NCBI GenBank assembly: GCA_964435005.1
Contig: CAYSXA010000002.1
Span: 1 to 60,979, forward strand
Reading direction: 5' to 3'
Length of the DNA: 60,979 bases
From: an uncultured Anaerolineaceae bacterium
Lineage (GTDB): Bacteria; Chloroflexota; Anaerolineae; Anaerolineales; DRMV01
Of this stretch, positions 29,496 through 59,571 are shown in pieces. Positions within the stretch are counted from its first letter, which is position 1. Every line of letters starts with the position of its first letter. The position numbers and the translations under genes were made by a program. The notes under the pieces were generated by a model. That model searched no databases and had not been told where the DNA came from. It was given only the letters and a program-made list of their open reading frames with translations.

Positions 29496-29511
29496 AAGGA
29501 ACGCTCTATCC

Positions 29512-32179: not shown

Positions 32180-33647
32180 ACGCTGGGAACGGCTGGGGGA
32201 GCGCATAGCGCCTGTTCTGTGGGCAGCATTGCTCATCTCCCTGCCTGTGACCAGTTTCCGACCACTTTCGCGACTGCTGGGCGGGCCAATGGTTGCCCCG
32301 CTGGCCATGGTGCCGATGGGCATGCTGCTCGTGGTCTGGGTCGCACCACATCTGCTACGACAACGGTGCCTGCCGCGCCTGACCTGGCCTTTCTTCGCCT
32401 TTGTCTGGGTGGCGTTGCTCGCTTCGCTGGCGGCCTTCTTCCTGCCCATCCCTCCCTATCGATCCCACACGATACTGACAAGCGAATTCAGCGCCTGGGC
32501 CACACTGGGCATCGGTGGTGGCTTTTACCTGACCACCATTACCTGGCTTCGAGACGAAAAACACCTGCGCAACGCGCTCTACTGGCTTAACCTGTCGGCA
32601 ATCGTACTGTTCACCTGGTCGGCGATACAAGGCTACTATGTGTTCGTGCGCAGCGCAAATCCGTCCTGGCTGATCACGGCACAGCGATGGATCAGTCTGC
32701 GTGGGCTGTTTCCGCACCGTCTGAACGGCCTGGCGTTTGAACCGTCGTGGCTGGCGCATGTGCTGAACATGGCTTACTTTCCCTGGTGGATCGCCGCCGT
32801 GACTCGACGACAGTCGGTGTATCGCTGGCGGCTGGGCCCGATCCTGGCGGAAGACCTGCTACTGGCCGTTGGGTTGCTCGTCCTGTTGTACTCGTTCTCG
32901 CGCATTGGCTTGATTTCCGTCCTTTTGATGACGGGCTACCTCAGCCTGCGATTGAACCTCTGGCTGGGGGAGCGTATCCACGTCTGGCTGCGTCGGCGGT
33001 TGCCCGCAGGCCGGGTTGTATCCATCATGCTGGGGGGCGGACTCTTCTTTGCCTTTCTGCTCTTTTACGCAGCGGTTTTGTACACCCTGATCCGTTTTGG
33101 TGCGCGCTACGATGTCCGTATCGCGGCCATGTTTGAGATCACTGCCGCCGATTTCACCAGCCCCTGGAATCTGGTGAATCGCCTGTTCTTCGCCGAACGA
33201 ATGGTTTACTGGGTGGCTGCCCTGCGCGTGTTCGGTCGTTTCCCCTGGCTGGGCGTAGGGTTGGGGAACGTGGGCTACTTTCTCCCTCAAACCCTGCCCG
33301 ATTTTGGCTGGTGGCTGCCGGAAGTCAACGATGTGTTGCTACGCTTCGCCTTTTTGCCCAACGCCAAGAACCTGTGGGTGCGTCTGCTGGCTGAAACCGG
33401 CGTTATGGGATGGACGGCTGTTCTGGTCTGGGTGTGGGGATTGTGGCGTGCGGCGCGGTCTCTGGAGCGAAAAACACCCGTGTCGCCGTTGATCAACCTG
33501 CTTGGGCTGGGCGGCCAGTTGATGTTGATCGCCTGGTTCTCCGAGGGGTTCAGCCTGGATACGTTTGGCCTGCCGTATTACTGGCTGGGGCTGGGAATAC
33601 TCACCGCCGCCGTGGCGGTGGGGGCACAGGAGGAATCGTTTTCATGA
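32172..33647 (+). CDS. O-antigen ligase / Wzy_C family polytopic membrane protein
   Basis: 491 aa, about 11-12 TM. HRLNGLAFEPSWLAHVL and FSRIGLISVLLM resemble the Wzy_C signature. Start ATG at 32172 overlaps the previous stop (ATGCTTGA). Confidence 0.7.
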   Translation: MLERWERLGERIAPVLWAALLISLPVTSFRPLSRLLGGPMVAPLAMVPMGMLLVVWVAPHLLRQRCLPRLTWPFFAFVWVALLASLAAFFLPIPPYRSHTILTSEFSAWATLGIGGGFYLTTITWLRDEKHLRNALYWLNLSAIVLFTWSAIQGYYVFVRSANPSWLITAQRWISLRGLFPHRLNGLAFEPSWLAHVLNMAYFPWWIAAVTRRQSVYRWRLGPILAEDLLLAVGLLVLLYSFSRIGLISVLLMTGYLSLRLNLWLGERIHVWLRRRLPAGRVVSIMLGGGLFFAFLLFYAAVLYTLIRFGARYDVRIAAMFEITAADFTSPWNLVNRLFFAERMVYWVAALRVFGRFPWLGVGLGNVGYFLPQTLPDFGWWLPEVNDVLLRFAFLPNAKNLWVRLLAETGVMGWTAVLVWVWGLWRAARSLERKTPVSPLINLLGLGGQLMLIAWFSEGFSLDTFGLPYYWLGLGILTAAVAVGAQEESFS

Positions 33648-35647
33648 AGACCCGACAATGGCCCTGGATTGCTATCGCTGCCGGTTGTGCGTTGCTTCTG
33701 CTGGCCTGCACCTGTACCCTGATCCTGGGTGCCAGCGTGGTCACGCTGGGAAGATGGCTGACCGATGCCCCGTTGGACATTCCGGTGACCGTTGCCGTCG
33801 CCACGCCGGTTCGCGTACCAACCATCCCGGCGGCGCAGTTACCCGAACTCTGGCAAGCGGCACAGGAAACACGTCAACAGTTAGAGAACACGCTGGTACC
33901 CGAGAATGACCCGCTGGACCTGGCCGTGCGGCTGGGGCAGGCCCCCGAGCCTGTCCCCTCGGTCGTCCCCAGCGGGCCGTACCAGGTAGGCGACCGCCAG
34001 GAATTCTGGGTCACGAACACAGACACCAACAAGACCAGCCGCGTTTCCGCCACCCTGCGCTATGTGACCGACCACCTGTACTTCTGGATCGCGGACGATG
34101 TAGATTACGACAAGCAGGCTCTGGCGCGTCTGGCGCAGTCCTTCGAGGAACACATCTACCCCACCGTGCGCAGCTTCTTCGGCAGCGAGTGGACACCCGG
34201 CATTGACGGTGATCCGCATCTGTATGTGCTCTACACCCACGGCATGGGAAATTCTGTGGCCGGCTACTTCTCCTCGGCGGACGAAGTGCCGCCGCTGGCG
34301 CACGAGTACTCCAACGCCCACGAGATGTTCTTCCTCAGTGCGGACAACGTGGCTCTGGACGAGGATTTCACCTACGGCGTGCTGGCGCACGAATTCCAGC
34401 ACATGATCCACTGGTATCGGGACCGCAACGAGACCTCCTGGCTGAACGAGGGCTTTTCAGAACTTGCGGCTTTCCTGGCCGGCTTCGACATAGGCCGCTT
34501 CGACTACGTTTACCTGCGTGCCCCCGATCTGCAACTGAACACCTGGCCCAGCAGCCAGCAGGCAGACACCAGCCCACATTACGGCGCGGGATTTCTCTTC
34601 GTTACCTACTTCCTGGACCGTTTCGGCGAGCAGGCCACGCGTGCGCTGGTGGCCGAGCCGCAAAACGGCCTGGTCAGCGTGGACCGCGTGCTCGCCGACC
34701 TCAACGCCACCGATCCGCTCACAGGCAAACTGTATCGCGCCGATGATTTCTTCCAGGACTGGACGATTGCCAACCTGCTGCGCGATGAGCATGTGGCTGA
34801 CGGGCGCTATACCTACCTGACATACCCCGACGTATCCAAGCCAAATGACACAGAGCACATCCACCGCTGTCCGTCCGACACGCCGCTGACAACCACAGTG
34901 CACCAGTACGGCGTGGACTACATCCGCATTACCTGCCGCGGTGACTACACGCTGCACTTTGAAGGTACGCCTTTTGTATCCGTGTTGCCGGTGGATCCGC
35001 ACTCCGGCGAGTTTGTCTTCTGGTCAAATCGCGGGGACGAATCCGACATGACGCTCACACGGCAATTCGATTTCACCGGTCTGGATTCGGTCACACTGAC
35101 GTACTGGATGTGGTACGATATCGAGCAGGATTACGACTACGTGTACCTGGAAGCCTCTACAGACGGCGAGCACTGGACGATCCTCACCACACCGTCTGGT
35201 ACGGGCGAAGACCCCAGCGGCAACAGCTACGGCTGGGCATATAACGGCCAGACGGGGCAATGGGTACAAGAGCGCGTGGATCTCTCGCCGTTCGCAGGGC
35301 AGCAGGTGTACCTGCGCTTCGAGTACGTCACCGATGCGGCGGTCAACGGAGAAGGCTTCCTGTTAGACGATATCGCCATCCCAGAACTCGGCTACCTGAC
35401 CGATTTCGAACAAGACGACGGCGGCTGGCAGGCAGCAGGCTTCGTCCGCTTACGCAATCGCCTGCCGCAAACTTACCGTGTGGCACTGGTCACCTTCGGC
35501 AAGGACACCACGGTACAGAAATGGGCGCTGAGCGGAGATCAGCCCCTCGACGTGCCCCTGCACCTGGAAGAGGACGCCGTGTTCGTCGTGAGCGGCACTA
35601 CACGCTTCACCCTGCAGCCCGCCGTGTACACCCTGGACATTCGCTAG
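33644..35647 (+). CDS. secreted/lipoprotein zinc metalloprotease (gluzincin HEFQH...WLNEGFSE), paralog A
   Basis: 667 aa from the ATG at 33644 (ATGA overlap with the ligase-like gene). Signal peptide with LLLACTC. Motifs VLAHEFQHMIHW + WLNEGFSE, GIDGDPHLYVLY, YLEASTDGEHWT, LDDIAIPELGY. Family (M30/M6-like) not resolved by eye. Confidence 0.7.
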   Translation: MKTRQWPWIAIAAGCALLLLACTCTLILGASVVTLGRWLTDAPLDIPVTVAVATPVRVPTIPAAQLPELWQAAQETRQQLENTLVPENDPLDLAVRLGQAPEPVPSVVPSGPYQVGDRQEFWVTNTDTNKTSRVSATLRYVTDHLYFWIADDVDYDKQALARLAQSFEEHIYPTVRSFFGSEWTPGIDGDPHLYVLYTHGMGNSVAGYFSSADEVPPLAHEYSNAHEMFFLSADNVALDEDFTYGVLAHEFQHMIHWYRDRNETSWLNEGFSELAAFLAGFDIGRFDYVYLRAPDLQLNTWPSSQQADTSPHYGAGFLFVTYFLDRFGEQATRALVAEPQNGLVSVDRVLADLNATDPLTGKLYRADDFFQDWTIANLLRDEHVADGRYTYLTYPDVSKPNDTEHIHRCPSDTPLTTTVHQYGVDYIRITCRGDYTLHFEGTPFVSVLPVDPHSGEFVFWSNRGDESDMTLTRQFDFTGLDSVTLTYWMWYDIEQDYDYVYLEASTDGEHWTILTTPSGTGEDPSGNSYGWAYNGQTGQWVQERVDLSPFAGQQVYLRFEYVTDAAVNGEGFLLDDIAIPELGYLTDFEQDDGGWQAAGFVRLRNRLPQTYRVALVTFGKDTTVQKWALSGDQPLDVPLHLEEDAVFVVSGTTRFTLQPAVYTLDIR

Positions 35648-35729: not shown

Positions 35730-37805
35730 ATGCACTATCGCCGTTTCCCCCTTCTCCTGCTGCTGGTGTTGGCGCTGCTCGTGAGCGCCTGCGGAAAGGC
35801 CGCCACACCAACACCAACCAGCGCCCCCCCAACCCAGGCACCGACCAAAGCACCCACACAGCCCCCCACGGCGGCACCGTCGGCCACGCCGACCGTGGAA
35901 CCGACGCCCGCCTGGCCAGAGCCGATCGCGCCGGAGGAAGACCTCAGCCGTTCCCCGGTCAGCGCGGTTGAACAGGCCACCTTTGACACCCTCGCCAGTC
36001 TGGACTTCGTGGAGAACGATCCCATCGGCCTGGCTGTCGCAATTAAAGGCGTGGAAGGCCCGGTGAACCCCGTAGCGGCGACCGAAGCCCCTACTCTGAA
36101 AGAAGGCACCGTGCAGACCTTCTGGGTGCACAACACGGACACCAACGAATGGAGTCAGGTGGAAGCCCGTCTGGAGCGCGTCACCGAACACGCCTACCTG
36201 TGGTTCGATACCAGCCGTGAACTGGTGCAGAAGGATGCCATCGACAAAGCTGCAGAGGCCTTCGAGAGCATGTACGAAGCCGATCGCGCCATCTACGGCA
36301 GCGAATGGAACCCCGGCATCGACGGCGATCCTCATGTCTATGTCCTGCACGCCGCCGCCACCGCGCTGTGCAACGTGACTGAGAGCACCGCCCACCAGTG
36401 CTCGCTGCTGGGCTATTTCTCCACCACGGACGAGTTGCCTGTGGCCGTAGAGCCGCACTCCAACCAGCATGAGATGTTCATCATGAACATGGATAAAGCG
36501 ATCGGCGGCGAGCAGTACCTCACCACCCTGATTCACGAATTCCGCCACATGATCGAGCACAATTACGACCGCCACGACGACGACTGGGAAGTGGAAGGCA
36601 CGGCGGTGATGGCGGAAGACCTGCTCGGCTACCCCAAGGTCGCAGGCGGCTACGGCAACGCGTTCACCGGCAACACCACCGACCTGCAACTGAACGTCTG
36701 GTCGCAGGGCGCCTCCGCCATTCAGCACTACGGCCAGGGTTATGTCTTTGCCCGCTACATCTACGACCGCCTGGGCCGTGATTTCTACTCGGCCTGGGTG
36801 CAGCACCCCGACCGCGGTTTCCTCGCCCTGGACGCCGTGTTGCAAGAGCAGGGGTACGATTTCAACGCCCACGACCTCTGGCTGGACTGGGCAACCGCCG
36901 TGGCGTTGCTGGGCTTCGACAACACCGCCATGCCTTACGCCTTCGGTGAGAACTTTTACGTCAAGCCGCCCAAGCGCACGCCGATCAACAAATTCCCCAA
37001 GACCATCAAGGACACGGTCAATCAGTACGCATTTGACGTGTACGACGTACGCGGCAAGGCACCAGTGCAGATCAACTTCACCGGCACGACCAAGGTCGCC
37101 GTGCTGGAGAACCTGCTTCCCGCTTCGGGCCAGTACATGTGGTGGTCGGGTCGCGCCAACCAGAGCGACATGAACCTGACCCGCGAGGTGGACCTGACCG
37201 GCGTGGACCAGGCCACCCTGGAGTACGACGTGTACTACAGCCTGGAGCGCGGCTACGACTTCGCTTATGTGCTGGTTTCGACCGACGGGGGCCAGACCTG
37301 GCAGTCGCTGGTCTCGGAAAACATGCAGGGCGAGAAAGCCAGCGACGATCCGGGCGACAACGCGCTCACCGACCGCTTCTACACCGGGCGCACGAAAGGC
37401 TGGGTGCATGAGAGCATCGACCTGAGTGACTACGCCGGGCAAAAAGTGCTCCTCCGCTTCCAGTACATCACCGACGCCATCTTCACCGGTCCCGGCATGG
37501 CGCTGGACAACATCGCCATCCCCGAAATCGGCTTCTACGACGACGCAGAAAGCCTGGCAGACGGCTGGCAGGCGCAGGGCTTCACCCGCGTGACGGCCTA
37601 CGAACCGCAGCGCTTCCACCTTGTGCTGGTCACCTTCGACGCAGACGGCGTGCCGCAAGTGCAGCGCATCGCCCTGGCCGACGACAACACGGCTTCCTTT
37701 GAAGTGCCGTTGAGCGAGGACAGCAGCCGCGCGTTGCTCATCGTGGCAGCGTCTAACCCACTGATCATGACGCCCGCACACTATCAGATCGAAGCCAGTC
37801 AGTAG
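35730..37805 (+). CDS. lipoprotein zinc metalloprotease (HEFRH...WEVEGTA), paralog B
   Basis: 691 aa. Lipobox LLVSAC, a 44-aa Pro/Thr/Ala linker, LIHEFRHMIEH + WEVEGTAVMAE, GIDGDPHVYVLH, YVLVSTDGGQTW, LDNIAIPEIGF. Collinear with paralog A. Confidence 0.7.
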   Translation: MHYRRFPLLLLLVLALLVSACGKAATPTPTSAPPTQAPTKAPTQPPTAAPSATPTVEPTPAWPEPIAPEEDLSRSPVSAVEQATFDTLASLDFVENDPIGLAVAIKGVEGPVNPVAATEAPTLKEGTVQTFWVHNTDTNEWSQVEARLERVTEHAYLWFDTSRELVQKDAIDKAAEAFESMYEADRAIYGSEWNPGIDGDPHVYVLHAAATALCNVTESTAHQCSLLGYFSTTDELPVAVEPHSNQHEMFIMNMDKAIGGEQYLTTLIHEFRHMIEHNYDRHDDDWEVEGTAVMAEDLLGYPKVAGGYGNAFTGNTTDLQLNVWSQGASAIQHYGQGYVFARYIYDRLGRDFYSAWVQHPDRGFLALDAVLQEQGYDFNAHDLWLDWATAVALLGFDNTAMPYAFGENFYVKPPKRTPINKFPKTIKDTVNQYAFDVYDVRGKAPVQINFTGTTKVAVLENLLPASGQYMWWSGRANQSDMNLTREVDLTGVDQATLEYDVYYSLERGYDFAYVLVSTDGGQTWQSLVSENMQGEKASDDPGDNALTDRFYTGRTKGWVHESIDLSDYAGQKVLLRFQYITDAIFTGPGMALDNIAIPEIGFYDDAESLADGWQAQGFTRVTAYEPQRFHLVLVTFDADGVPQVQRIALADDNTASFEVPLSEDSSRALLIVAASNPLIMTPAHYQIEASQ

Positions 37806-48122: not shown

Positions 48123-48189
48123 TGCGTTGTTGCCTGTTGACAACGGATTCCGTCCCGCAGGAGACTGCGGGCGTTTTTTTGGAGAAGCG

Positions 48190-48984
48190 ATGAAACCCAC
48201 CCTGAACGACCTGGAGACCCTGGCGCGGCTTGCGGGCCGCATTTTACGCGAAGGTTACGGTCGGCGACATCAGATTGACTACAAAGGCGTGATCGACCTG
48301 GTGACCGAGGTTGACCGGCAATCCGAGGCGCTGCTGCTGAGTGAGATCAGGCACCGCTTTCCCGGCCACCGCGTAGTCGCCGAAGAATCCGGCGGGCTGG
48401 ACGGCGCAGACGGCGACCTGTGGTTCGTCGATCCGCTGGATGGCACGGTGAACTACGCCCACGGCGTGCCCATCTTCACGGTGTCCATCGCCTACGCCCA
48501 CCAGGGGAAAGTGCGCCTGGGTGTGGTGTACGACCCGATGCGCGACGAGTGCTTCGCCGCCGAGCGAGGTCGCGGTGCCTGGTTGAACGGTGAACCGATT
48601 CGGGTCTCCCCCACCGACGACCTCAACCGCAGCCTGCTGGTGACCGGCTTCCCCTACGACATCCGCACCAATCCGCAGAACAACCTCGACCTGTTCGCCA
48701 CATTCGCGCTACGCACCCACGGTGTGCGACGGCTGGGGTCTGCGGCGCTTGACCTGTGCTACGTGGCCGCCGGACGATTCGATGGCTACTGGGAAATTCG
48801 CCTGAACCCGTGGGACGTGGCCGCCGGCGGGCTGATCGCAGAAGAAGCCGGCGCAAAGGTCACCAACCTGGGTGGCGAGGCGGATTACCTCTCGCCGCCG
48901 CAGTCCATCCTGGCCGCGAATCCAATCATCCACGCCCAGATACTCAACGTCATTCAAGAAGTGAAAGGAACAAGGAACGAGTAA
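48190..48984 (+). CDS. inositol monophosphatase family protein (SuhB-like)
   Basis: VAEESG, WFVDPLDGTVNYAHG, and WDVAAG motifs. Confidence 0.85.
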   Translation: MKPTLNDLETLARLAGRILREGYGRRHQIDYKGVIDLVTEVDRQSEALLLSEIRHRFPGHRVVAEESGGLDGADGDLWFVDPLDGTVNYAHGVPIFTVSIAYAHQGKVRLGVVYDPMRDECFAAERGRGAWLNGEPIRVSPTDDLNRSLLVTGFPYDIRTNPQNNLDLFATFALRTHGVRRLGSAALDLCYVAAGRFDGYWEIRLNPWDVAAGGLIAEEAGAKVTNLGGEADYLSPPQSILAANPIIHAQILNVIQEVKGTRNE

Positions 48985-49055: not shown

Positions 49056-49739
49056 TCATTCTAAAGAGACCAGCCCTGTACGAATGGCAAACTTCACCAG
49101 TTCGGTGCGAGAATGCAGGTTCAGCTTCGCCATGATGCGTTCGCGGTGACGGGCTACGGTCTTCGGGCTGATGCCCAACCGCTCGCCGACCTGAGAATTG
49201 GTCAGTCCTTCCGCTACCAGTTCGAGCACCTGACGCTCGCGTTCAGTGAGCACCTCCAAGCCCGGATGCGGTTCATCCTTTTCCCTGGACAAAGCCGCCC
49301 GCTCGCTCAGGCGGCGGTAGTCTTCCAGCAACCAGCGCGCCAGCGAGGGTTGCAGGTAAACATGCCCTGCAGCCACAGCCCGGATAGCGTTGACCAGCTC
49401 ATCTGGCGCAGCACGCTTGGAAAGGTAACCCGATGCACCAGCGGCCAGCATCTCAAAGAAGTATTGCTTGTCCTCGTGCACGGTGAGCGCCAGCACCGGA
49501 CACTGGGCACCCATCTCCCGCAACCGTCGTGTGACCTGGATGCCATCCAGCTCCGGCATGGTAATGTCCATCAGGATCACGTCCGGACAGACCTCTGTAG
49601 CGACCTGTAAAGCTTCGACACCGCTGGCCGCCTCAGCGACCACGACGATCTCCTCGTGGGTTTCCAGGAAGGTACGCAATCCGGCACGCACCACCTCATG
49701 GTCGTCCACCAGCATCACGCGGATGGGTTCTTCCGTCAT
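49056..49739 (-). CDS. NarL/FixJ (LuxR-type HTH) response regulator
   Basis: REC domain VMLVDDHE...ILMDITMPELDG. C-terminal LTERERQVLELVAEGLTNSQVGERLGISPKTVARHRERIMAKL. Confidence 0.9.
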   Translation of the reverse strand: MTEEPIRVMLVDDHEVVRAGLRTFLETHEEIVVVAEAASGVEALQVATEVCPDVILMDITMPELDGIQVTRRLREMGAQCPVLALTVHEDKQYFFEMLAAGASGYLSKRAAPDELVNAIRAVAAGHVYLQPSLARWLLEDYRRLSERAALSREKDEPHPGLEVLTERERQVLELVAEGLTNSQVGERLGISPKTVARHRERIMAKLNLHSRTELVKFAIRTGLVSLE

Positions 49740-51214
49740 TCACCTTCCTCCTCGATCGGCTCCAGCCGGGCGGGAAGCCTGGCGCGGATGCGTGTTCCCC
49801 GTCCGGGAGCACTGTCCACCTCCAGCGTACCGCCGACTGCTTCCACTCGTTCCTGCATGCCCATTAACCCCCAACTCCACTCCGAACGCGGCTTTTGCTC
49901 CAGGTCAAAGCCAACGCCCTGATCACGCACTTCCAATTGTACTTCGTCTTCGCCGAACACAAGGCACACCTCCGCCTGATCCGTGCCCGCGTGGCGCACC
50001 ACGTTGGTCAGCGCCTCCTGTACGACACGGAAGATCACCGTTTCCAGTGTGGGATCGATCCGTCGGGATGCCTTCTGGACGTTCAGAGCGGTGCGCAAAC
50101 CGAGGTGGTAGTGCAGGTCTTCAACCAGACACTCCAGCGCGGGGATCAGACCCAGGTCGTCCAGTTGCGCCGGGCGCAGATCGTGCACCAGGTGCTGCAG
50201 GCGGCGGGCAACCTGATCGCCCAATGTACGGGCTTGTTGCAGATGATACGTCGCGGCCAGATTGTCCTTCACATGGTTTTGCAAGGCCGCCAGATGCAGG
50301 CTGAAGGCGGTCAGCGTCTGGGCAGTCTCGTCGTGCAACTCGCGCGCAATGCGAGCGCGTTCGTCTTCCTGCGCCTGGACGATGCGGCGTAGCAGTTCAC
50401 GACGCAGCGCCTCGCGGTGCACCAGTTCTCGCAGGCGCGCCTGCTGCGCCTCTTCCATCGCCTGACGGCGCTCCTGCTCGGCAGCCTGAATGGCATGCAA
50501 CAAACCGAGCGCCATGCCTGCCGCCAACACCGTCCGCACCACTTCCATCCGCATCCGCAGGATCTTCCCAATGCCGATCGCGTTCAACCAATCGGGAGAC
50601 TGCCAGCGCCCAGGCTGGACAAGCACCTGAGAGAGCGCGTACAACGCAAAGCAGAGCGCCGCCCACAGCAAACCTCGAGCCAGGGACGCGCGATTCTCGG
50701 CGATCAGCTCGCGGGCGCGGTGGCGCAGGGCAAACGCCGCCAGCAACGCCCCCGGCGCACCCAGACCGTAGCGCGCCAGACGATCAGCCTGGAGAAGCAA
50801 AGCCTCTGGTGGGAGCGGCTTCAGCAACGCAATTCCCAGCAGGACAGCCAGGTAAAAGAAAAGCAACCCAACGCCCACCCAGACGTCCCGCGCAGCGAGG
50901 CGGCGCGGCGGGTAGAGCACCTGCACTCCATAGGCCACCAGCGAGAGGAATGAAAGCACCAGCATGCCCACACGTAGCCAGGGTAACCAGGGAGGAAGGA
51001 ACCAACCCTGCCCCGGCTCCAGTTGCAACGCCAGCTCCACCCACTCGTGCAACCCATGCAATGCACCGAACACCGCCAGCGGCAAGAGGACACGCGCAGC
51101 GGCCAACCGGGGCGCGCGTCCCATTTCCAGCCCGAGCAGCGTGCCCAGCAGGACGAACGCCAGCCCGTAGGCCAGATAGATCGCAAACATGGTGGGGGAT
51201 AAGACGGCTTCCAT
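49736..51214 (-). CDS. membrane-embedded sensor histidine kinase (HisKA_3 / NarX-DesK type)
   Basis: About 6-7 N-terminal TM helices with only short loops, H-box RIARELHDETAQTL, HATPase_c (VVQEALTNVVRHA ... DQGVGF). ATGA overlap with the regulator gene. Confidence 0.85.
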   Translation of the reverse strand: MEAVLSPTMFAIYLAYGLAFVLLGTLLGLEMGRAPRLAAARVLLPLAVFGALHGLHEWVELALQLEPGQGWFLPPWLPWLRVGMLVLSFLSLVAYGVQVLYPPRRLAARDVWVGVGLLFFYLAVLLGIALLKPLPPEALLLQADRLARYGLGAPGALLAAFALRHRARELIAENRASLARGLLWAALCFALYALSQVLVQPGRWQSPDWLNAIGIGKILRMRMEVVRTVLAAGMALGLLHAIQAAEQERRQAMEEAQQARLRELVHREALRRELLRRIVQAQEDERARIARELHDETAQTLTAFSLHLAALQNHVKDNLAATYHLQQARTLGDQVARRLQHLVHDLRPAQLDDLGLIPALECLVEDLHYHLGLRTALNVQKASRRIDPTLETVIFRVVQEALTNVVRHAGTDQAEVCLVFGEDEVQLEVRDQGVGFDLEQKPRSEWSWGLMGMQERVEAVGGTLEVDSAPGRGTRIRARLPARLEPIEEEGE

Positions 51215-51253
51215 TTGTACTCATTGTACCCCATTCACAACACAGGAAAATGT

Positions 51254-51286
51254 GTCAAATGTCCTGCCATCAATAGGACATTTGAC
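51254..51286. promoter_or_regulatory. perfect 12-bp inverted repeat GTCAAATGTCCT-9 nt-AGGACATTTGAC; candidate operator
   Basis: Read directly in the 234-nt, visibly AT-richer divergent intergenic region between the kinase gene and the first cytochrome gene. Confidence 0.4.
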
Positions 51287-51448
51287 CCTCTCATCTATCT
51301 TTAATGTCGGGTATGATAGTTGTGGATTGGGTTATTTACCCCATCACCCAAGTGGGTCCTGTTCAAAGGAGGTGAAGTATAACCAGACTTTGACAATCCC
51401 TCGAACCACTTTGCACCACAAGTTTTTCGTTGAGAAGGAGAATGCCGT

Positions 51449-52720
51449 ATGAAGACCAAATGGTTCCTGTTCCTTGTGTTACTGGTGGCTGGCGCGCTGG
51501 TGTTCAGCGCGTGTGCTGGCCCCCAGGGGCCGGAAGGCCCACAAGGCCCCGCTGGTCCGCCCGGGCCGCAGGGCCCCGCTGGTCCGCCAGGCAAGGACGC
51601 CACGGCGGCTCAGCAATACGTTGGCTCCGAGAAGTGTGGCGAATGTCATGAGGCCGAGTACGAGAAGTTCGTGAAGTCCGGCCACCCCTACAAGCTGACC
51701 AAGATCGAAAACGGTCAGCCGCCGGAGTATCCCTTTGACGCAATCACTGGCGGCGTGCCCACCCCGCCGGAAGGGTACACCTGGGCCGACATCTCCTACG
51801 TGATCGGCGGCTTCGGCTGGAAGGCGCGCTTCCTGGACAAGGAAGGTTACATCATCACCGGGCCCCCGGGCACGCGTGGGGACAAGGCCGCGGCGGAGGG
51901 CTACGTCAACCAGTACAACTTCGCCAACGAGGTGGTCGGTAAAGAGGCTGGCTGGGTGCAGTACCACATCGGCGATGAAAAGCCCTACACCTGCGGCACC
52001 TGCCACACCACCGGCTACGATCCCGAGGGGCACCAGGATGACCTGCCCGGCATCGTGGGCACCTGGGCCTTCCCTGGCGTCCAGTGCGAAGAGTGCCACG
52101 GCCCTGGTAGCCTGCACAGCGAAGACCCCTACGGTGTGCCCGTTGTCGTGGAGCGCGCCTCGCAATTGTGCGGACGCTGCCACCTGCGCGGCGACCCGGC
52201 AGAGATCGACGCCAAGGGCGGCTTCGAGAAACACCACGAGCAATACGAAGACCTGCTGAACTCGAAGCACTTCGCGATCTCCTGCGTGACCTGCCACGAT
52301 CCGCACGCCTCGGCGATCTATGCCGACCCGAACGTCAACCCGAACAAGTCCATTCGCCAGACGTGTGATACCTGCCACTGGCAAAGCGCCAAATACCAGA
52401 AGACTGACAAGCACACCGGCGTGCAGTGCTACGAGTGCCACATGCCGCCAATGGCGAAGTCGGCCTGGGGCAATACGGACACCCTCACCGGGGACATCCA
52501 CTCCCATCAGTTCTCCATCAACACGGATCCCAACGATCCCCAGTTCACCGAGGATGGCAAGTACGTGATGCCATACATCACCCTGGCCTACGCCTGCCAG
52601 TGGTGCCACGATGGCGACAAGGCCTCCACGCAGGACCTGACCACCCTGGCCGATATGGCAAAGGGCTACCACATGCCGCCGGTTGAGACCGCGCCGACCA
52701 CTGAAACTACAACACCGTAG
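51449..52720 (+). CDS. octaheme c-type cytochrome lipoprotein with collagen-like N-terminal stalk
   Basis: 423 aa. Signal peptide with lipobox-like VFSAC. Eight CxxCH: CGECH, CGTCH, CEECH, CGRCH, CVTCH, CDTCH, CYECH, CQWCH. Thr/Pro-rich C-terminal tail. GAAGGAGA Shine-Dalgarno. Confidence 0.85.
   Translation: MKTKWFLFLVLLVAGALVFSACAGPQGPEGPQGPAGPPGPQGPAGPPGKDATAAQQYVGSEKCGECHEAEYEKFVKSGHPYKLTKIENGQPPEYPFDAITGGVPTPPEGYTWADISYVIGGFGWKARFLDKEGYIITGPPGTRGDKAAAEGYVNQYNFANEVVGKEAGWVQYHIGDEKPYTCGTCHTTGYDPEGHQDDLPGIVGTWAFPGVQCEECHGPGSLHSEDPYGVPVVVERASQLCGRCHLRGDPAEIDAKGGFEKHHEQYEDLLNSKHFAISCVTCHDPHASAIYADPNVNPNKSIRQTCDTCHWQSAKYQKTDKHTGVQCYECHMPPMAKSAWGNTDTLTGDIHSHQFSINTDPNDPQFTEDGKYVMPYITLAYACQWCHDGDKASTQDLTTLADMAKGYHMPPVETAPTTETTTP
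51518..51598 (+). repeat. nine uninterrupted Gly-X-Y (collagen-like) triplets; 9-nt periodic DNA with a 17-nt exact direct repeat
   Basis: GPQ GPE GPQ GPA GPP GPQ GPA GPP GKD (aa 24-50). ggccccgctggtccgcc occurs at 51545-51561 and again at 51572-51588. Confidence 0.85.
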
Positions 52721-52742
52721 CTCTGGCGGCTACACACCATAT

Positions 52743-52780
52743 GATGCGGGGGGGGCGGGCACACCCCACCCCCCCGCATC
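52743..52780 (+). repeat. G-run/C-run hairpin between cytochrome genes 1 and 2
   Basis: GATGCGGGGGGG ... CCCCCCCGCATC: a 12-bp perfect stem with a 14-nt loop that can pair further (ggg/ccc). Confidence 0.6.
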
Positions 52781-52800
52781 TGGTTCCAGGAAAGGTGCCT

Positions 52801-53946
52801 ATGGTGCAAGCAACAAAATCCCGGCTGTGGCTGCTACTGATCCCTCTGCTTCTGGTGGGATTGGGGCGCGTGTCGCAGGCGCGGGCTGAAGGCGAAGGGC
52901 CGTTGCCACCGATTCCTCTGCCGACCAGTGTCCCGATGAGCAACGACCAGTGTCTGTCATGCCACATCACACCCTTCATGTATCGCACCCTGCCCGATGG
53001 ATCGCAGATCAACCTGACGCTGGATCGAATCCTGTTCAACACCTCGGTACACGGGCGAGAAGGGCTGTCCTGCGTGCAGTGTCACACAGAAATCACCGGC
53101 TTCCCACATCCGGAGCTCACGGTGGAGAGCCAGCGGGAACTGACCATTCAGTTGAACCGCGCCTGCGCGACCTGTCACGTCGGTGAAGCAGAACGTTACC
53201 GACAGGGCGATCATGCCCGCTTGCTGACAGAAGGGAACACAGACGCCGCCGTGTGCTCCGATTGCCACGGAGCACACCACCTGGAGGAATTCGGCGGTGC
53301 ACGCAGCAAAATCTCAGCCGCATGTCGGCAATGCCATGCCGAGATTTACGATGTGTACCGGGACAGCGTGCACGGCAAAGCGCTGATCGAAGAATTCAAC
53401 CCGGACGTGCCCACCTGCATAGATTGCCATAGCAACCACGCGAACGCAGGGCCAGCACAGCGGTCCTCTTTCCTCCTGTTCTCTCCGCAGATTTGCGCCC
53501 GATGCCATGCGGACGAAGAACTCATGGCGCGCTACGAGATCAACACCAACGTCTTTGAGACTTACGTGGCCGATTTCCATGGCACCACGGTGACCATCTT
53601 CGAGCAGATCGCGCCGGATCAGATCGTGAACAAGCCCGTATGTGTGGACTGTCACGGCGTGCACAACATCCTGCCACCTACCGACGAGAACAGCTCGGTG
53701 ATGAAAGACAACCTGGTGGAGACCTGCCGCCGCTGTCATCCAGAAGCCAATCTGAACTTCCCGGATGCCTGGATGAGCCATTACACACCTGACTGGAAAC
53801 ACACCCCGCTGGTCACGCTGGTGCAGTGGTTCTACAACATCGTGATCCCGCTCACCATCGGTGGGATGACTCTCTTCGTGGTCACCCATGCATGGCGCAC
53901 CCGCGTCCGTCGCCGAGTGGATACCCGGAAGGAGGGAGGCTCATGA
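52801..53946 (+). CDS. nonaheme c-type cytochrome with C-terminal membrane anchor
   Basis: 381 aa from the ATG at 52801. Signal peptide ending SQARA. Nine CxxCH: CLSCH, CVQCH, CATCH, CSDCH, CRQCH, CIDCH, CARCH, CVDCH, CRRCH. C-terminal TM WFYNIVIPLTIGGMTLFVV. Confidence 0.85.
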   Translation: MVQATKSRLWLLLIPLLLVGLGRVSQARAEGEGPLPPIPLPTSVPMSNDQCLSCHITPFMYRTLPDGSQINLTLDRILFNTSVHGREGLSCVQCHTEITGFPHPELTVESQRELTIQLNRACATCHVGEAERYRQGDHARLLTEGNTDAAVCSDCHGAHHLEEFGGARSKISAACRQCHAEIYDVYRDSVHGKALIEEFNPDVPTCIDCHSNHANAGPAQRSSFLLFSPQICARCHADEELMARYEINTNVFETYVADFHGTTVTIFEQIAPDQIVNKPVCVDCHGVHNILPPTDENSSVMKDNLVETCRRCHPEANLNFPDAWMSHYTPDWKHTPLVTLVQWFYNIVIPLTIGGMTLFVVTHAWRTRVRRRVDTRKEGGS

Positions 53947-55103
53947 GCGTCCCGGAGAAATTCGAGCGCTTTTCGCCCATTCGACGCTTTGAGCATTGGG
54001 TGATGGTGGCCTCGTTCACCGCCCTGGCATTCACTGGCCTGCCGCAGAAGTACATGGACTTGCCGATCTCGCTGGCGGTCCTGCGCGCGGTAGGCGGACT
54101 GGAGACCGCACGCGTGATCCACCGCGTGGCCGCGGTGATCTTGATGCTGATCTCCATGGTACACATCGGTTCGGTGCTACACGACTGGTATGTGAAGCGC
54201 CTTCGGGCGTCCATCATGCTGGGGAAGCAGGATCTGATCGACGCGATCGAGTATCTGCGCTACAACCTGGGACTGCGTCCCGAACCACCCAAGATGGGTT
54301 GGTTCACCTTTGACGAAAAAATCGAATACTGGTCGTTGATGTGGGGCACCCTGATCATGGTGCTGACCGGCTTCTTCCTCTGGAATCCGATCACGGCAGC
54401 TCGCCTTTTTCCTGGCGAATGGATCCCGGCAGCCAAGACCGCGCACGGATCCGAGGCGCTGCTGGCGGTACTGGCGATCCTGATCTGGCACACCTACCAC
54501 GTGCACCTCAAGCACTTCAACAAAAGCATGTTCACCGGTTACTTGACGCGGGAAGAGGTAGCCCAAGAACACCCGCTGGTGCTGGAACACCCACCGCAGC
54601 CCGCACCGTTCCCGGCAACCGAGCGGCACAAACGGCAACGCACCTTCCTGGCAGTGTACCTCATCCTGTGTCTGCTGTGGCTGGGCGGGGTGACCTGGTT
54701 CGTCACGGTCGAGCAAACGGCGACCAGTGCGCCAGAGCCGATCCCCGACATCGCTCAGGTCGAAGCTTTCGCGCAACTCACCCCCACGCCGCTCCCTCAG
54801 CCAGCGAATCTGGAGGAAGCCACCGCCCGTTACGGCACCACCTGGGAGGGCGGCATCGGCGCGTTGCTCAGCAGTAAGTGTGGTCGTTGCCATACGCCGC
54901 GCCTGGGTGCTCGTCATCTGGATTTAACCACCTACGCCGGCGCACTGGCCGGCGGCGATTCAGGGCCGGCGGTTGTCCCCAACTCCCCTGGCAGCAGCCT
55001 GGTGCTGATCTGGCCGAACCTGGAAGACCATCCGGCCCACTTAACCCCGCTGGAACGCGCCGCCGTCTGGAGATGGATCGTTCACGGCGCGCCCGAACGT
55101 TGA
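53943..55103 (+). CDS. FdnI/HydC-type b cytochrome (4 TM) fused to a fifth TM and an extracytoplasmic monoheme c domain (PSCyt1-like)
   Basis: - ATGA overlap with the previous gene.
- RFSPIRRFEHWVMVASFTALAFTGLP is typical of prokaryotic cytochrome b561 / formate dehydrogenase gamma.
- Conserved His in TM1, TM2 and TM4.
- C-terminus LLSSKCGRCH...GGDSGPAVVPNSPGSSL...WIVHGAPER. Confidence 0.8.
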   Translation: MSVPEKFERFSPIRRFEHWVMVASFTALAFTGLPQKYMDLPISLAVLRAVGGLETARVIHRVAAVILMLISMVHIGSVLHDWYVKRLRASIMLGKQDLIDAIEYLRYNLGLRPEPPKMGWFTFDEKIEYWSLMWGTLIMVLTGFFLWNPITAARLFPGEWIPAAKTAHGSEALLAVLAILIWHTYHVHLKHFNKSMFTGYLTREEVAQEHPLVLEHPPQPAPFPATERHKRQRTFLAVYLILCLLWLGGVTWFVTVEQTATSAPEPIPDIAQVEAFAQLTPTPLPQPANLEEATARYGTTWEGGIGALLSSKCGRCHTPRLGARHLDLTTYAGALAGGDSGPAVVPNSPGSSLVLIWPNLEDHPAHLTPLERAAVWRWIVHGAPER

Positions 55104-55107
55104 GCCC

Positions 55108-55155
55108 CTTCCCCCGGTGCTGACCGAGGCAGGCCGCACCGGGGGAGGACTTTTT
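55108..55155 (+). terminator. terminator-like hairpin with T5 tract between the b-cytochrome and NapC-like genes
   Basis: 13-bp stem (one G-U) CTTCCCCCGGTGC ... GCACCGGGGGAGG followed by ACTTTTT. The AGGAGGAGG Shine-Dalgarno of the next gene follows. Confidence 0.55.
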
Positions 55156-55169
55156 AGGAGGAGGACACC

Positions 55170-56873
55170 ATGGCGCTGAAATCACTGTGGGAGGTAATGA
55201 AGAAAGGCCAGATCTGGCTGCGCCTGGCGCCGTTCATCGCCCTGGCCGCGATCCTGGCAGTAGTGCTGTATGGCGGTATTTACGCCTGGACGTACACCAA
55301 CTCAGCGGAATTTTGCGGCAGCACCTGTCACACCATGCCGCCAGAGTACAGCGCCTATCAGCGGTCGCCGCACGCGCGGGTGCAGTGCGTCGAGTGTCAT
55401 CTAGGGCGCGACATCGTGACCAAACAGTTCACGCGCAAGGCCGGCGACCTGCGGCATGTGCTCGCCACCCTGACGCGCGACTACGAGTTCCCCATCTTCG
55501 CCAAAGAGATGCGCCCGGCGCGGGAGACCTGCGAGAAATGTCACTACCCGGAAAAATTCTCAGACGACAGCCTGCGAGAAATCCAGCGTTACCTACCCAA
55601 CGAGGAGAACGACCACGAAAGCATCTTCCTCATCCTGAAGACAGGCGGCGGGTCGAAGCGCGAGGGGCTGGGCAAAGGGATCCACTGGCACATCGAGAAT
55701 CCCATCCTTTTCCTGGCCACCGACGAATTGCAGCAAAACATCCCTTACGTGCGGGTGGTGCACGAAGACGGCACGTTCACCGAATACTACGACGTGACCT
55801 CAGGGTTCACACCTTACGACGTGGAACGCAAGCCGCTGCAACGCATGGACTGCATCACCTGCCACAACCGGGTGACACACCGCATCCTCGCACCCGATGA
55901 CGCGGTCGATCAGGCGTTGAGCAAGGGACTACTCCCCAAACTCCCCGACATCCGTCGTCAGGCGGAGAACTGGCTGCGTCAGCCGTTCACTTCGGTAGAC
56001 GAAGCGCAGGCAACTCTGGCGGAGCAGGTGCCAGCTTTCTATCAGCAACATTACCCTGATGTGAGCGCCGAGGATGTGCAACAGGCCGTCTCTGTGCTGC
56101 AAGAGATGTACGCCCGCCTGTACTTCCCGGAACAGAAAACGGACTGGCAAACGCACCCGGACAACCTGGGGCACCGCACATCGCCGGGTTGTTTTCGCTG
56201 CCACGACGGCAAACACATGACCGCCACCGGCGAAGCCATTCGACTGGAATGCAACCTGTGCCACTCCGTGCCAGTGATTTCCCAGGAAGGGGAACGGGTG
56301 GCCCGAATCGAGATCGTGCGCGGCCCGGAGCCGGTCTCGCACACCCACTCCAGCTGGATCAGCCTGCACGGCCAGGTGCTCGACTCGTCCTGTCAGGAAT
56401 GTCACCCGCCAGCCAGTCCGGATGTGGATTACATCCAGCTGGAAGGAAAACTGCCCTCGGACGGTTCCTTCTGCGGCAATCCGATGTGTCATGATCGGAA
56501 CTGGCAATATGCCGCCTTCGATGAGCCCGCCTTGCAGCCGTTATTGGATCAACAACTGTACATCCTGCTGAACACCAGCCCTTACCTGTTGGAAGGCGTG
56601 CCGCGCACCTACGAAGGCACCTTCAAGGCAATCTTCGACGGGCGCTGTGTTTTCTGTCACAGCGAGCCGGACGCTAAGGCCGACCTGGACATGAGCACCT
56701 ACGAAGGCATCCTGAGAGGGGGCAAAAACGGCCCTGGGATCGCACCCGGTGACCTGAAGGCCAGCCTGATCTGGCAACGCCAGACGCGCCGCAAGGCGCA
56801 CTTCGGTCAGATGCTGGACGACGAATTGGAAGCCCTGCGTGACTGGATTCTGGCCGGCGCGCCGGAAAGATAA
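55170..56873 (+). CDS. NapC/NirT-like membrane-anchored multiheme cytochrome with C-terminal PSCyt1-like domain
   Basis: 567 aa. N-terminal TM. NapC-like EFCGSTCHTM (CxxxCH) + SPHARVQCVECH + CEKCH + CITCH, then CFRCH, CNLCH, CQECH, CGNPMCH (CxxxxCH), CVFCH. C-terminal end is WILAGAPER. Confidence 0.8.
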   Translation: MALKSLWEVMKKGQIWLRLAPFIALAAILAVVLYGGIYAWTYTNSAEFCGSTCHTMPPEYSAYQRSPHARVQCVECHLGRDIVTKQFTRKAGDLRHVLATLTRDYEFPIFAKEMRPARETCEKCHYPEKFSDDSLREIQRYLPNEENDHESIFLILKTGGGSKREGLGKGIHWHIENPILFLATDELQQNIPYVRVVHEDGTFTEYYDVTSGFTPYDVERKPLQRMDCITCHNRVTHRILAPDDAVDQALSKGLLPKLPDIRRQAENWLRQPFTSVDEAQATLAEQVPAFYQQHYPDVSAEDVQQAVSVLQEMYARLYFPEQKTDWQTHPDNLGHRTSPGCFRCHDGKHMTATGEAIRLECNLCHSVPVISQEGERVARIEIVRGPEPVSHTHSSWISLHGQVLDSSCQECHPPASPDVDYIQLEGKLPSDGSFCGNPMCHDRNWQYAAFDEPALQPLLDQQLYILLNTSPYLLEGVPRTYEGTFKAIFDGRCVFCHSEPDAKADLDMSTYEGILRGGKNGPGIAPGDLKASLIWQRQTRRKAHFGQMLDDELEALRDWILAGAPER

Positions 56874-56891
56874 CCACGTCTACAAAACCGC

Positions 56892-56933
56892 ACAGGGCAC
56901 AGAGGGTGGTACTCTGTGCCCTGTCTTTATTTT
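56892..56933. terminator. bidirectional intrinsic terminator between convergent genes
   Basis: 13-bp perfect stem ACAGGGCACAGAG-ggtggta-CTCTGTGCCCTGT followed by CTTTATTTT. On the other strand it is followed by GCGGTTTTGT. Confidence 0.75.
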
Positions 56934-58495: not shown

Positions 58496-58526
58496 TGGTT
58501 TCCTGGTTACATTGGTTAGCCTGGTT
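58427..58526 (-). repeat. 12 tandem units of an 8-9-nt repeat with invariant AACCA core
   Basis: TGGTT on the plus strand at 58427, 58435, 58443, 58451, 58460, 58469, 58478, 58487, 58496, 58504, 58513 and 58522. The array spans the stop of the upstream nucleotidase gene, the 29-nt spacer and the first 23 codons of the GT39-like gene. Confidence 0.9.
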
Positions 58527-59514
58527 ATGCGCCGATGGCGCGCAGGGCGGCGAGCACGGCGTCGTGCAGGTGGCCGTTGGTGGCGAGCACACCGCGATTG
58601 CGCGCCAGCGTGCGCCCGGCGGTGAAATCCAGTGGCTTCCCGTCCAGATCAGTGACGCGTCCGCCGGCCTCCTCCACCACCAGCGAACCGGCGGCCTGAT
58701 CCCAGATTTTCTCACGATAGTCCGGCTTCTTCGGCGAGAGCAGGCGCACCAGCACCTCGCCGGCGCCAGCGGCCAGCAGCGCGTACTTCGCCTGGCTGTC
58801 CATGGGCACCGGGTCGGCCTGCGTGCCCAGCGACTCGGCCAGCGCGCCGACCTGCCCGACGTTCGTGTGCCCGGCTTCCCAGGAACGCAACAGGCGCGCC
58901 TGCGCCGGGTCGCGGCGGTCGGAAACGCGCAGGCGGGTGAACGCGGGCGCTTCGGCGGCCAGCGGCGCGTACCAGGTGCCGCCGCCGCGCACGGCGACCA
59001 CCAGCGAGCCCGCCCCGCCGACCTCAGTGCGACGGGCTTCCACCAGATTGGGGCAACCCAGCACCCCGATCTGCACCTGGCTGTCCTCGATCAGCGCCAG
59101 CGCCACGGCGAACTGGTCGCCGCGCAGGAAGCCTTTGGTGCCGTCGATCGGGTCGAGCGTCCAGAAGCGCCCCTGTGGCGCGCCCGCGCCCCGGTCGATC
59201 CAAGCACAGACCTGTTCCGCGTCCGCTTGCGGGCGGAATCGCTGCACAAAACGCGTGACCTGTGCCAGCGTCTCCGCCTGAGCCGGGTCGCGCAGCGCGG
59301 CGGCGTCTTCCTCGCCAACCAGCGGGTCATTCGGGAACGCCTCGTCCAGCGCGGCGGCGATCAGCGCCTGCGAGGCGAAATCGGCCACCGTGACCGGCGA
59401 TCGGTCGTCTTTGGTGAGCGCCTGGCCGGCGAGCGCGCTCTGCACCGCGCGCACGGCCAGCGCCGCCTGACGGACGGCGGACAGGGCGAATTGGACTTCG
59501 GGAGCGTTCAGCAT
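58525..59514 (-). CDS. 3'(2'),5'-bisphosphate nucleotidase (HAL2/CysQ-type, IMPase superfamily)
   Basis: FWTLDPIDGTKGFLRGDQFAVALALIE and WDQAAG. Start trimmed to MLNAPEV (59514) so that the gene does not run into the hairpin at 59535-59571. Confidence 0.75.
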   Translation of the reverse strand: MLNAPEVQFALSAVRQAALAVRAVQSALAGQALTKDDRSPVTVADFASQALIAAALDEAFPNDPLVGEEDAAALRDPAQAETLAQVTRFVQRFRPQADAEQVCAWIDRGAGAPQGRFWTLDPIDGTKGFLRGDQFAVALALIEDSQVQIGVLGCPNLVEARRTEVGGAGSLVVAVRGGGTWYAPLAAEAPAFTRLRVSDRRDPAQARLLRSWEAGHTNVGQVGALAESLGTQADPVPMDSQAKYALLAAGAGEVLVRLLSPKKPDYREKIWDQAAGSLVVEEAGGRVTDLDGKPLDFTAGRTLARNRGVLATNGHLHDAVLAALRAIGA

Positions 59515-59534
59515 GGGGGCTTCTCCAAATCTCT

Positions 59535-59571
59535 CTCCCACCCCTTCCCCCAGTGGGGGAAGGGGTGGGAG
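59535..59571. repeat. perfect 17-bp C-run/G-run hairpin (CTCCCACCCCTTCCCCC-agt-GGGGGAAGGGGTGGGAG)
   Basis: Read directly, 6 nt downstream of the rimO stop (minus strand). Same architecture as 3534-3568 and 13875-13912 but with a diverged arm sequence. Confidence 0.85.

Follow-up and report, generated by a model that had tools for sequence, protein, structure and literature searches.

How could bacteria bounded by a single membrane hand respiratory electrons to acceptors outside the cell? Anaerolineae, for which the absence of an outer membrane has been reported, rank with the most abundant bacteria of sediments, aquifers, anaerobic digesters, anammox granules, and anode biofilms. Iron reduction or direct interspecies electron transfer is often suspected in them; a molecular route for these single-membrane filaments has yet to be defined. 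The question is raised in concrete form by a cytochrome-rich locus of an uncultured Anaerolineaceae bacterium (GenBank assembly GCA_964435005.1, contig CAYSXA010000002.1, positions 1 to 60,979; this whole 60,979-nucleotide stretch is hereafter called the window). Six genes at 49056-56933 comprise two minus-strand regulators and four co-directional plus-strand cytochrome genes, termed here c1, c2, b3, and c4. We judge the chance to be slightly better than even that the products of these four genes oxidize menaquinol through two alternative entry modules and feed a lipid-anchored surface cytochrome, with electrons flowing outward to an extracellular acceptor. The operon is probably a Chloroflexi version of a known electron-export system.

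The listing of open reading frames, Pfam matches, and motif counts define an unusually heme-rich block. The predicted proteins carry 8 (c1), 9 (c2), 1 (b3), and 7 (c4) CxxCH motifs, 25 canonical motifs in all, and c4 has two further variants, CGSTCH (CxxxCH) and CGNPMCH (CxxxxCH), which bring the total to 27 heme c motifs. By six-frame translation, the four reading frames hold 25 of the 26 CxxCH motifs of the window. The block is closed by a bidirectional hairpin resembling an intrinsic terminator (56892-56924; 13-bp stem with eight G-C pairs, 7-nucleotide loop) with T-runs flanking it on both strands. Everything that the first-pass annotation had reported on the six genes, on their motif counts and membrane topologies, and on the terminator was reproduced, as was its observation that no molybdopterin, Fe-S, copper, hydrogenase, or CxxCK subunit is adjacent. 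Neither CxxCK nor CX11-17CH motifs occur in the four cytochrome proteins. The genes from ~41 kb to the end of the window belong to housekeeping families (UvrC, amidohydrolase, HD, inositol phosphatases, PMT_2-like, and RimO/MiaB-like), and none of the genes flanking the block in this region carries a molybdopterin, Fe-S, copper, or hydrogenase domain; no catalytic partner of the cytochromes is encoded within the window. Desulfovibrio-type Hmc, Tmc, Ohc, and Nhc complexes, alternative complex III, and porin-cytochrome conduits have Fe-S, NrfD, or CCG subunits or a beta-barrel porin; these systems were ruled out, as their defining subunits are not encoded here.

The c4 gene (55170-56873, plus strand) encodes an ImcH-type protein within the NapC/NirT/NrfH superfamily and a putative quinol dehydrogenase. 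Pfam detected Cytochrom_NNT (46 bits) and PSCyt1 (37 bits) domains, and the matching solved structures were NrfH of D. vulgaris (2j7a_C, E value 3e-6) and FoxE (5mab, 4e-5). A single N-terminal transmembrane helix (residues 15-39) is followed some 10 residues later by the CxxxCH motif C49-GST-C53-H54, which was invariant in 24 of 24 homologues. All nine heme motifs, together with M56 and K90, are invariant in these homologues (58-65% identity), and the two variant motifs are not due to chance because both are kept throughout this set. ImcH homologues have been defined by an N-terminal membrane domain, an adjacent atypical CX3CH motif, and six CxxCH motifs (Zhong and Shi, PMC6295460). In c4, likewise, the first heme after the anchor is CX3CH, six CxxCH motifs follow, and the tetraheme core is NrfH-like. 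Compared by published motif and transmembrane coordinates (PMC6295460, Table S3) rather than by alignment, the heme-motif spacing of c4 (23, 48, 107, 113, 20, and 47) is nearly the same as that of Geobacter sulfurreducens ImcH GSU3259 (24, 49, 106, 117, 20, and 38) and of the Anaerolinea thermophila homologue WP_013560589 (23, 49, 107, 116, and 20).

The c4 protein departs from the Geobacter type in several respects. It has one transmembrane helix instead of three, a feature already catalogued in 2018 for the homologue of A. thermophila and also found in Intrasporangium calvum (PMC6295460); it keeps the NrfH-like CH-x-Met, whereas a glutamine has been modelled as the distal ligand in ImcH; it extends by ~150 C-terminal residues carrying the CX4CH heme and a PSCyt1 monoheme domain; and it is genomically paired with c1. 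The N-terminus of c4 aligns with NrfH, including the CH-x-M motif in its CX3CH variant, and an invariant RKAGD motif (K90) lies close to the position of Lys82 in the NrfH quinol site, so that the two lysines may be equivalent. However, c4 is not an NrfH proper: it scored 68.7 bits against the 134.2-bit cut-off of TIGR03153, it has nine heme motifs, and no CxxCK partner accompanies it. ImcH is the inner-membrane quinol oxidase that serves high-potential extracellular acceptors in G. sulfurreducens, where extracellular electron transfer above -0.1 V requires it, and its reaction has been shown to be electroneutral, with protons released outside.

The second entry module is formed by c2 and b3. 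The c2 gene (52741-53946, plus strand; alternative start at 52801) encodes a nonaheme cytochrome c that carries a signal peptide and is anchored at its C-terminus by a transmembrane helix, after which comes a basic tail. Its nine CxxCH motifs are all kept in 42 homologues; a histidine within the transmembrane helix is not conserved. For the b3 gene (53943-55103, plus strand), the most likely start is position 53943; there, downstream of a GGAGG sequence, its ATG and the stop codon of c2 share the four letters ATGA, an overlap that suggests translational coupling. The b3 protein is an FdnI/HydC-type diheme cytochrome b with a C-terminal PSCyt1 domain (PF01292, 63.4 bits against a cut-off of 30.1; PSCyt1, 27.7 bits), and it matched FdnI (1kqf_C) with an E value of 1.2e-6. 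Four of its histidines, H18, H60, H168, and H183, align with the four heme ligands of FdnI and are 100% conserved in 26 homologues. The four transmembrane helices of the diheme b domain are followed by a fifth helix and then by the PSCyt1 domain, which we place outside the cell because basic residues precede the fifth helix; this orientation is consistent with c-type heme attachment. The NCBIfam FdnI equivalog was missed (54.5 versus 115.9 bits), and no dehydrogenase partner is present.

Taken together, c2 and b3 provide nine c-hemes and six transmembrane helices with two FdnI-type histidines in the fifth, the layout of CbcL, split here over two genes instead of residing on a single polypeptide. 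By the published coordinates, the last five heme intervals of c2 (23, 31, 26, 49, and 28) agree with those of CbcL (24, 29, 28, 43, and 28), whereas the first three are longer (40, 31, and 30 versus 23, 25, and 23), and b3 has an extra PSCyt1 heme domain. Natural c2-b3 fusions of 603-689 residues, with 7-9 CxxCH motifs and a b domain, were found in Anaerolineae, Dehalococcoidia, and Candidatus Schekmanbacteria; the source annotation of four of these proteins (P0391, P0341, P0356, and P0380) goes no further than "cytochrome c3 family" or "formate dehydrogenase gamma subunit". The Anaerolineae protein P0391 (689 residues, 9 CxxCH, six transmembrane helices) shares 48% identity with each of c2 and b3, and its helices start at relative offsets 0, 65, 111, 178, 212, and 288, compared with 0, 66, 114, 192, 226, and 304 in CbcL GSU0274. 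When representative sequences were searched with the b domain, the matching clusters were all either unnamed or Chloroflexota-like. Fusions of the cbc type had been noted in Chloroflexi in 2021 (bioRxiv 10.1101/2021.04.15.440034).

CbcBA was also considered for this pair. It shares with c2-b3 a c-heme subunit that ends in a transmembrane helix and whose gene lies directly upstream of that for the b subunit, but CbcA has seven hemes instead of nine and its C-terminal helix supplies the fourth b-heme histidine, whereas in the pair described here all four histidines reside in b3. CbcBA was rejected as the best match on account of the heme number, the placement of the histidines, and the lack of conservation of the histidine in the c2 helix; its sigma-54/BccR-type regulation also differs from the two-component regulator found here. 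The placement of the single C-terminal helix of c2 beside a four-helix cytochrome b recalls FdnH-FdnI of formate dehydrogenase-N, but neither an Fe-S nor a molybdopterin subunit is encoded here. Both CbcL and CbcBA have been proposed to permit respiration of lower-potential acceptors at a lower energy yield.

The two entry modules end in the same way. The PSCyt1 domains of b3 (~54840-55100) and c4 (~56607-56870) are 37% identical (E value 1e-18), both finish in WI..GAPER, and both resemble the two heme domains of FoxE. In 22-24 related loci (e.g. L058:13474-15588), the same domain is also found at the end of a PetD-type subunit that has five cytochrome c domains. These shared termini probably serve as a common output or docking site of both quinol modules. 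No description of PSCyt1 paralogues ending two quinol modules was found in the literature searched.

The c1 gene (51449-52720, plus strand) encodes a 423-residue octaheme lipoprotein of the OcwA/OmhA clade. In searches against the PDB, its best solved relative was OcwA (6I5B), with an E value of 1.6e-12 for the single sequence and 7.3e-20 for the family profile, and the profile also matched OmhA (6QVM, 3.5e-12) and MccA (1e-7). The profile alignment pairs c1 residues 48-240 with OcwA residues 7-198, a region that consists of the N-terminal c554-like tetraheme and the beta-sheet part; the C-terminal half of c1 is short, gives weak local matches, and fits the MtrC domain II/IV profile in the Pfam scan. 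All eight CxxCH motifs and the lipobox Cys22 are invariant in 28 homologues. Outside the motifs, eight histidines and two methionines are conserved, enough for eight six-coordinate hemes, although this number does not prove the actual ligation. Both OcwA of the monoderm, Gram-positive Thermincola potens, where it is the cell-surface terminal reductase, and OmhA of Carboxydothermus ferrireducens are surface cytochromes of Gram-positive iron reducers, and c1 shares with them an extracytoplasmic location, a single-membrane host, and the absence of CxxCK. In contrast to these proteins, c1 has 8 hemes instead of 9 or 11 and is lipid-anchored through a collagen-like stalk, and its C-terminal half spans ~180 residues compared with ~330. 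The nine hemes of OcwA include an NrfA-like C-terminal pentaheme module, a three-helix bundle accompanies them, and hemes 2 and 5 are five-coordinate, whereas the C-terminal matches of the octaheme c1 are weak. No description of OcwA homologues in Chloroflexi was found in the literature searched.

The stalk is encoded at 51518-51592 (residues 24-48), where eight Gly-Pro-X triplets directly follow the lipobox cysteine; the glycine at every third position is invariant in the 28 homologues, some of which reach ~17 triplets. The match of this repeat to the Pfam Collagen family is weak. As judged from its sequence, the repeat could form a collagen-like or polyproline stalk of ~7 nm, and a collagen-like structure may imply that c1 is a trimer. 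The c1 tail is Pro/Thr-rich. We found no description of collagen-like repeats linked to multiheme cytochromes in the literature searched. The first-pass annotation had allowed that c1 might prove to be a catalytic octaheme enzyme, but none of the expected signatures was found. The assignments to ONR and NrfA were rejected in the absence of CxxCK and of family-level similarity, the matches to both being weak and local; those to HAO and OTR were rejected for want of family-level similarity, HAO being absent among the c1 matches and OTR showing no significant similarity (an OTR model reached an E value of 0.0065 for c4 only). MccA was rejected as well. The protein has no CX15CH or CX17CH motif, and an MccA-type copper site is absent because no cysteine remains beyond the heme motifs and the lipobox (17 cysteines, 16 of them in heme motifs).

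We further assessed the distribution of the system in a scan of one genome per species, which identified c4 homologues in 488 species-level genomes; the homologue clusters number more than 7,400 for c4 and ~2,600 for c1. Among the best 80 loci of these 488 genomes, inspected by lineage, 78 are labelled Chloroflexota (Ardenticatenaceae, Promineifilaceae, and Anaerolineales). The other two (L020 and L049, DASRZI01 contigs) come from one bin labelled Candidatus Zixiibacteriota, with c4 homologues 60% identical; these short contigs are probably mis-binned because every other top match is from Chloroflexota. The most conserved pairing is that of c1 directly upstream of c4 (34 of 81 loci), the c2-b3 pair occurs in 40 and c2-b3-c4 in 19 of the 81, and the synteny check proposed earlier recovered the full four-gene order of the window in 4 of them, plus L065 with a gap. 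The module is a modular and widespread system of Anaerolineae and no one-off. No description of the breadth of the c4 family across Anaerolineae was found in the literature searched.

The neighborhoods of related loci contain further electron-transfer genes that do not occur in the window. A lipoprotein multiheme cytochrome of ~733 residues, with an internal duplication and a Pro-rich linker, adjoins c4 in 47 of 83 loci (L072:11890-14091, L001:11819-14068). In ~30 loci, a module of NrfD, a 4Fe-4S protein, and a multiheme protein of ~320 residues lies near the cluster (L001:1-7158, L004:6772-7749, L077:19617-20864) and represents a quinone-interacting module of a third kind; Hdr-like CCG, Fe-S, and FAD proteins come after it in L001. 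Rieske, cytochrome b, and the PetD-type subunit with five cytochrome c domains follow directly after c4 on the same strand in the 22-24 loci mentioned above. Heme-maturation (ccm) genes are also found near the cluster in related loci. One of the closest c1 homologues (77% identity) comes from a genome in which, at L084:1-9800, a c1-c4 pair without c2-b3 between its genes is divergent from a full set of System I cytochrome c maturation genes (CcmABC-like, E, F, H, and thioredoxin) and from a gene for a 663-residue multi-cytochrome c protein. In neither the window nor the inspected loci was a terminal oxidase or reductase linked to the module.

From what was observed, namely the anatomy of the genes, the conservation of their motifs, the signals of topology, the homologies, the synteny, and the fused genes, we infer the quinol donor, the direction of flow, the formation of complexes, the role of PSCyt1, the geometry of the stalk, and the nature of the acceptor as follows. 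The operon would move electrons from the menaquinol pool to the outer face of the single-membrane cell. By analogy with ImcH and NrfH, c4 would oxidize menaquinol at the outer face in an electroneutral reaction that releases protons outside, with its first heme (CX3CH-x-Met) positioned just beyond the single transmembrane helix. The b3 protein and the C-terminally anchored c2 would probably form a 1:1 complex, a split CbcL, that carries electrons across the membrane through two b hemes. From the PSCyt1 heme at the end of each module, probably the common docking site, electrons would pass on to c1, held off the membrane by its ~7-nm stalk, and c1 could there reduce acceptors that are insoluble or lie outside the cell, for example Fe(III)/Mn(IV) oxides, humics, an electrode, or a partner cell. 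The combination of two quinol-interacting parts with outward hemes and a lipid-anchored terminal cytochrome, recognized in the first-pass annotation, is supported by homology to ImcH, CbcL, and OcwA. Physiological precedent within the phylum comes from Ardenticatena maritima, a member of the Chloroflexi that reduces iron and electrodes and shows cathodic as well as anodic electron transfer. A more elaborate reading, possible but tentative, is that of a conduit proper to Anaerolineae, in which a collagen-stalked and possibly trimeric, OcwA-like octaheme lipoprotein projects through the cell wall and is fed by interchangeable quinol oxidases, all ending in a PSCyt1 docking heme; these would be the ImcH-like protein, the split CbcL-like module, and, in some genomes, the Rieske/cytochrome b complex.

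Several observations weigh against electron export to an extracellular acceptor. The 733-residue lipoprotein cytochrome that so often adjoins c4 is absent from the window, and the encoded chain may be incomplete without it; the Rieske/cytochrome b neighbors of c4 could indicate an ordinary respiratory role; the tight c1-c4 pairing looks like an enzyme pair of the NrfH-NrfA type; and OcwA reduces nitrite and hydroxylamine in vitro. The AlphaFold2 models were of poor quality, with a predicted local distance difference test score (pLDDT) of 49.6 for c1 (28-sequence alignment), too low to judge fold or coordination, and of 54 for c4 (24-sequence alignment). The reliance of the ImcH and CbcL comparisons on coordinates also counts here, and no expression, localization, or phenotype data for any family member were found in the literature searched.

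Some of these observations point to an alternative that we regard as unlikely, namely that c1 is the catalytic subunit of a quinol-dependent reductase of a soluble substrate, with c4 as its dedicated NrfH-like donor and c2-b3 as a second feed-in; the function would be nitrite, hydroxylamine, or nitric oxide detoxification, or the reduction of a sulfur oxyanion. Such a role would account for the frequent position of c1 directly upstream of c4 and for the NrfH-like N-terminus of c4 with its retained CH-x-M, and the OcwA/MccA/c554/NrfA superfamily to which c1 belongs is one in which catalysis is common. However, the nitrite turnover of OcwA is only 1 per minute, and c1 itself has no CxxCK, no CX15CH or CX17CH, and no MccA-type copper cysteines; its similarity to HAO and OTR is not significant and that to NrfA and ONR weak and local. 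The eight histidines and two methionines of c1, sufficient for six-coordinate hemes, also speak against a catalytic heme, although they are not proof. Regulation points both ways, since two-component systems of the NarL class are used for nitrate and nitrite sensing, whereas the kinase encoded here has no periplasmic ligand-binding domain.

The direction of electron flow and the destination of the electrons leave room for two further readings. We consider it improbable that the module works inward, with c1 accepting electrons that Fe(II), reduced humics, a cathode, or a partner cell donates and with menaquinone as their destination; b3 would then behave like its counterpart in formate dehydrogenase-N, so that quinone is reduced at the inner face and a proton-motive force is generated. 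The full FdnI histidine pattern and topology of b3 would fit this direction, in which formate dehydrogenase-N runs, as would the resemblance of the PSCyt1 domains to both heme domains of the Fe(II) oxidase FoxE, although that similarity is limited to a generic monoheme domain. Both A. maritima, through its cathodic activity, and CymA and CbcL/MtoC-type proteins, implicated in both directions, provide precedents for reversal, whereas ImcH has so far been implicated in quinol oxidation only, and the reduction of menaquinone by Fe(II) at neutral pH is thermodynamically demanding. The least probable of the alternatives is an internal respiratory branch, in which the modules are quinol:cytochrome c oxidoreductases that feed a heme-copper oxidase, NirS/NirK, or Nor. 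This reading is suggested by the Rieske, cytochrome b, and PetD-type genes after c4, by the NrfD, Fe-S, and multiheme modules in ~30 loci, and by the aerobic and denitrifying respiration encoded by many Anaerolineae. Nevertheless, 27 heme c motifs, a stalked octaheme lipoprotein, and a terminal cytochrome of the OcwA type far exceed the needs of a soluble or membrane oxidase, and neither the window nor the inspected loci link such an enzyme to the module.

On the favored reading of outward electron transfer, expression of the operon would be controlled by the divergent two-component system, which would make it conditional. The regulator gene (49056-49739, minus strand) encodes a NarL-class protein with receiver and DNA-binding domains (Response_reg, 3.7e-32; GerE, 1.5e-22). 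The kinase gene (49736-51214, minus strand), which overlaps it by 4 nucleotides, encodes HisKA_3 and HATPase_c domains preceded by approximately six transmembrane segments in the hydropathy profile, with no large external loop, and the architecture of the pair is that of the NarL/LuxR class. Neither protein reached an NCBIfam equivalog cut-off. The membrane domain of the kinase contains a FGxxHGxHEWxE motif (residues 49-60, ~51035-51070) that is conserved in 35 homologues and covered by no Pfam domain; it could be a heme, metal, or quinone sensing site. In 31 of the 81 related loci, c4 has a homologue of the regulator (identity of 45% or more) no farther than 10 kb away, and a divergent kinase adjoins c1 or c4 in 9 of them. 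The AT-richer intergenic region between the kinase gene and c1 contains a perfect 12-nucleotide inverted repeat, GTCAAATGTCCT-N9-AGGACATTTGAC (51254-51286), which is a candidate operator. Its sequence is not kept in seven related divergent intergenic regions, which have palindromes of their own, and its role is assigned by inference for this reason.

How new is the system? The parts are of known kinds, and passing mention has been made before of an ImcH homologue from Anaerolinea and of fusions of the cbc type in Chloroflexi. The earlier statement that no conduit yet described resembles this gene set and its fusions was overstated, with each part having a described counterpart in ImcH, CbcL, or OcwA; among the protein families predicted at that stage, cytochrome b561 (PF01292), NapC/NirT, PSCyt1, and c554-like domains were found. 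On the other hand, no description of a co-operonic set of ImcH-like, split CbcL-like, and OcwA-like proteins was found in the literature searched. The operon and its relatives in 488 species-level genomes offer a concrete, conserved candidate route. If confirmed, they would supply a set of marker genes by which extracellular electron transfer could be recognized in Chloroflexota, they would reveal in an unrelated phylum the arrangement known from Geobacter, with two quinol oxidases serving different acceptor potentials, and they would add two design elements, a shared PSCyt1 output heme and a collagen-like cytochrome stalk. The tentative stalked-conduit reading, if true, would amount to a potential-adaptive gearbox serving extracellular respiration or electron transfer between species, and would supply a usable gene marker of that capacity in several hundred uncultured species.

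No Rfam families were detected in the window. The cytochrome module is bracketed by two genes of the inositol-monophosphatase family (48127-48984, plus strand, and 58525-59541, minus strand). A low-GC stretch at 24000-30000 (52-53% compared with ~64% elsewhere) contains a 701-residue open reading frame without Pfam match, and in or near it lies a gene for a 1292-residue multidomain protein (23708-27586) with methyltransferase, GT2, and GT4/GT1 domains; the stretch may be an acquired polysaccharide-synthesis island. Two adjacent large proteins (33410-35647 and 35730-37805), each with an InhA-like MAM domain, look like tandem paralogues of a secreted protease-like protein.

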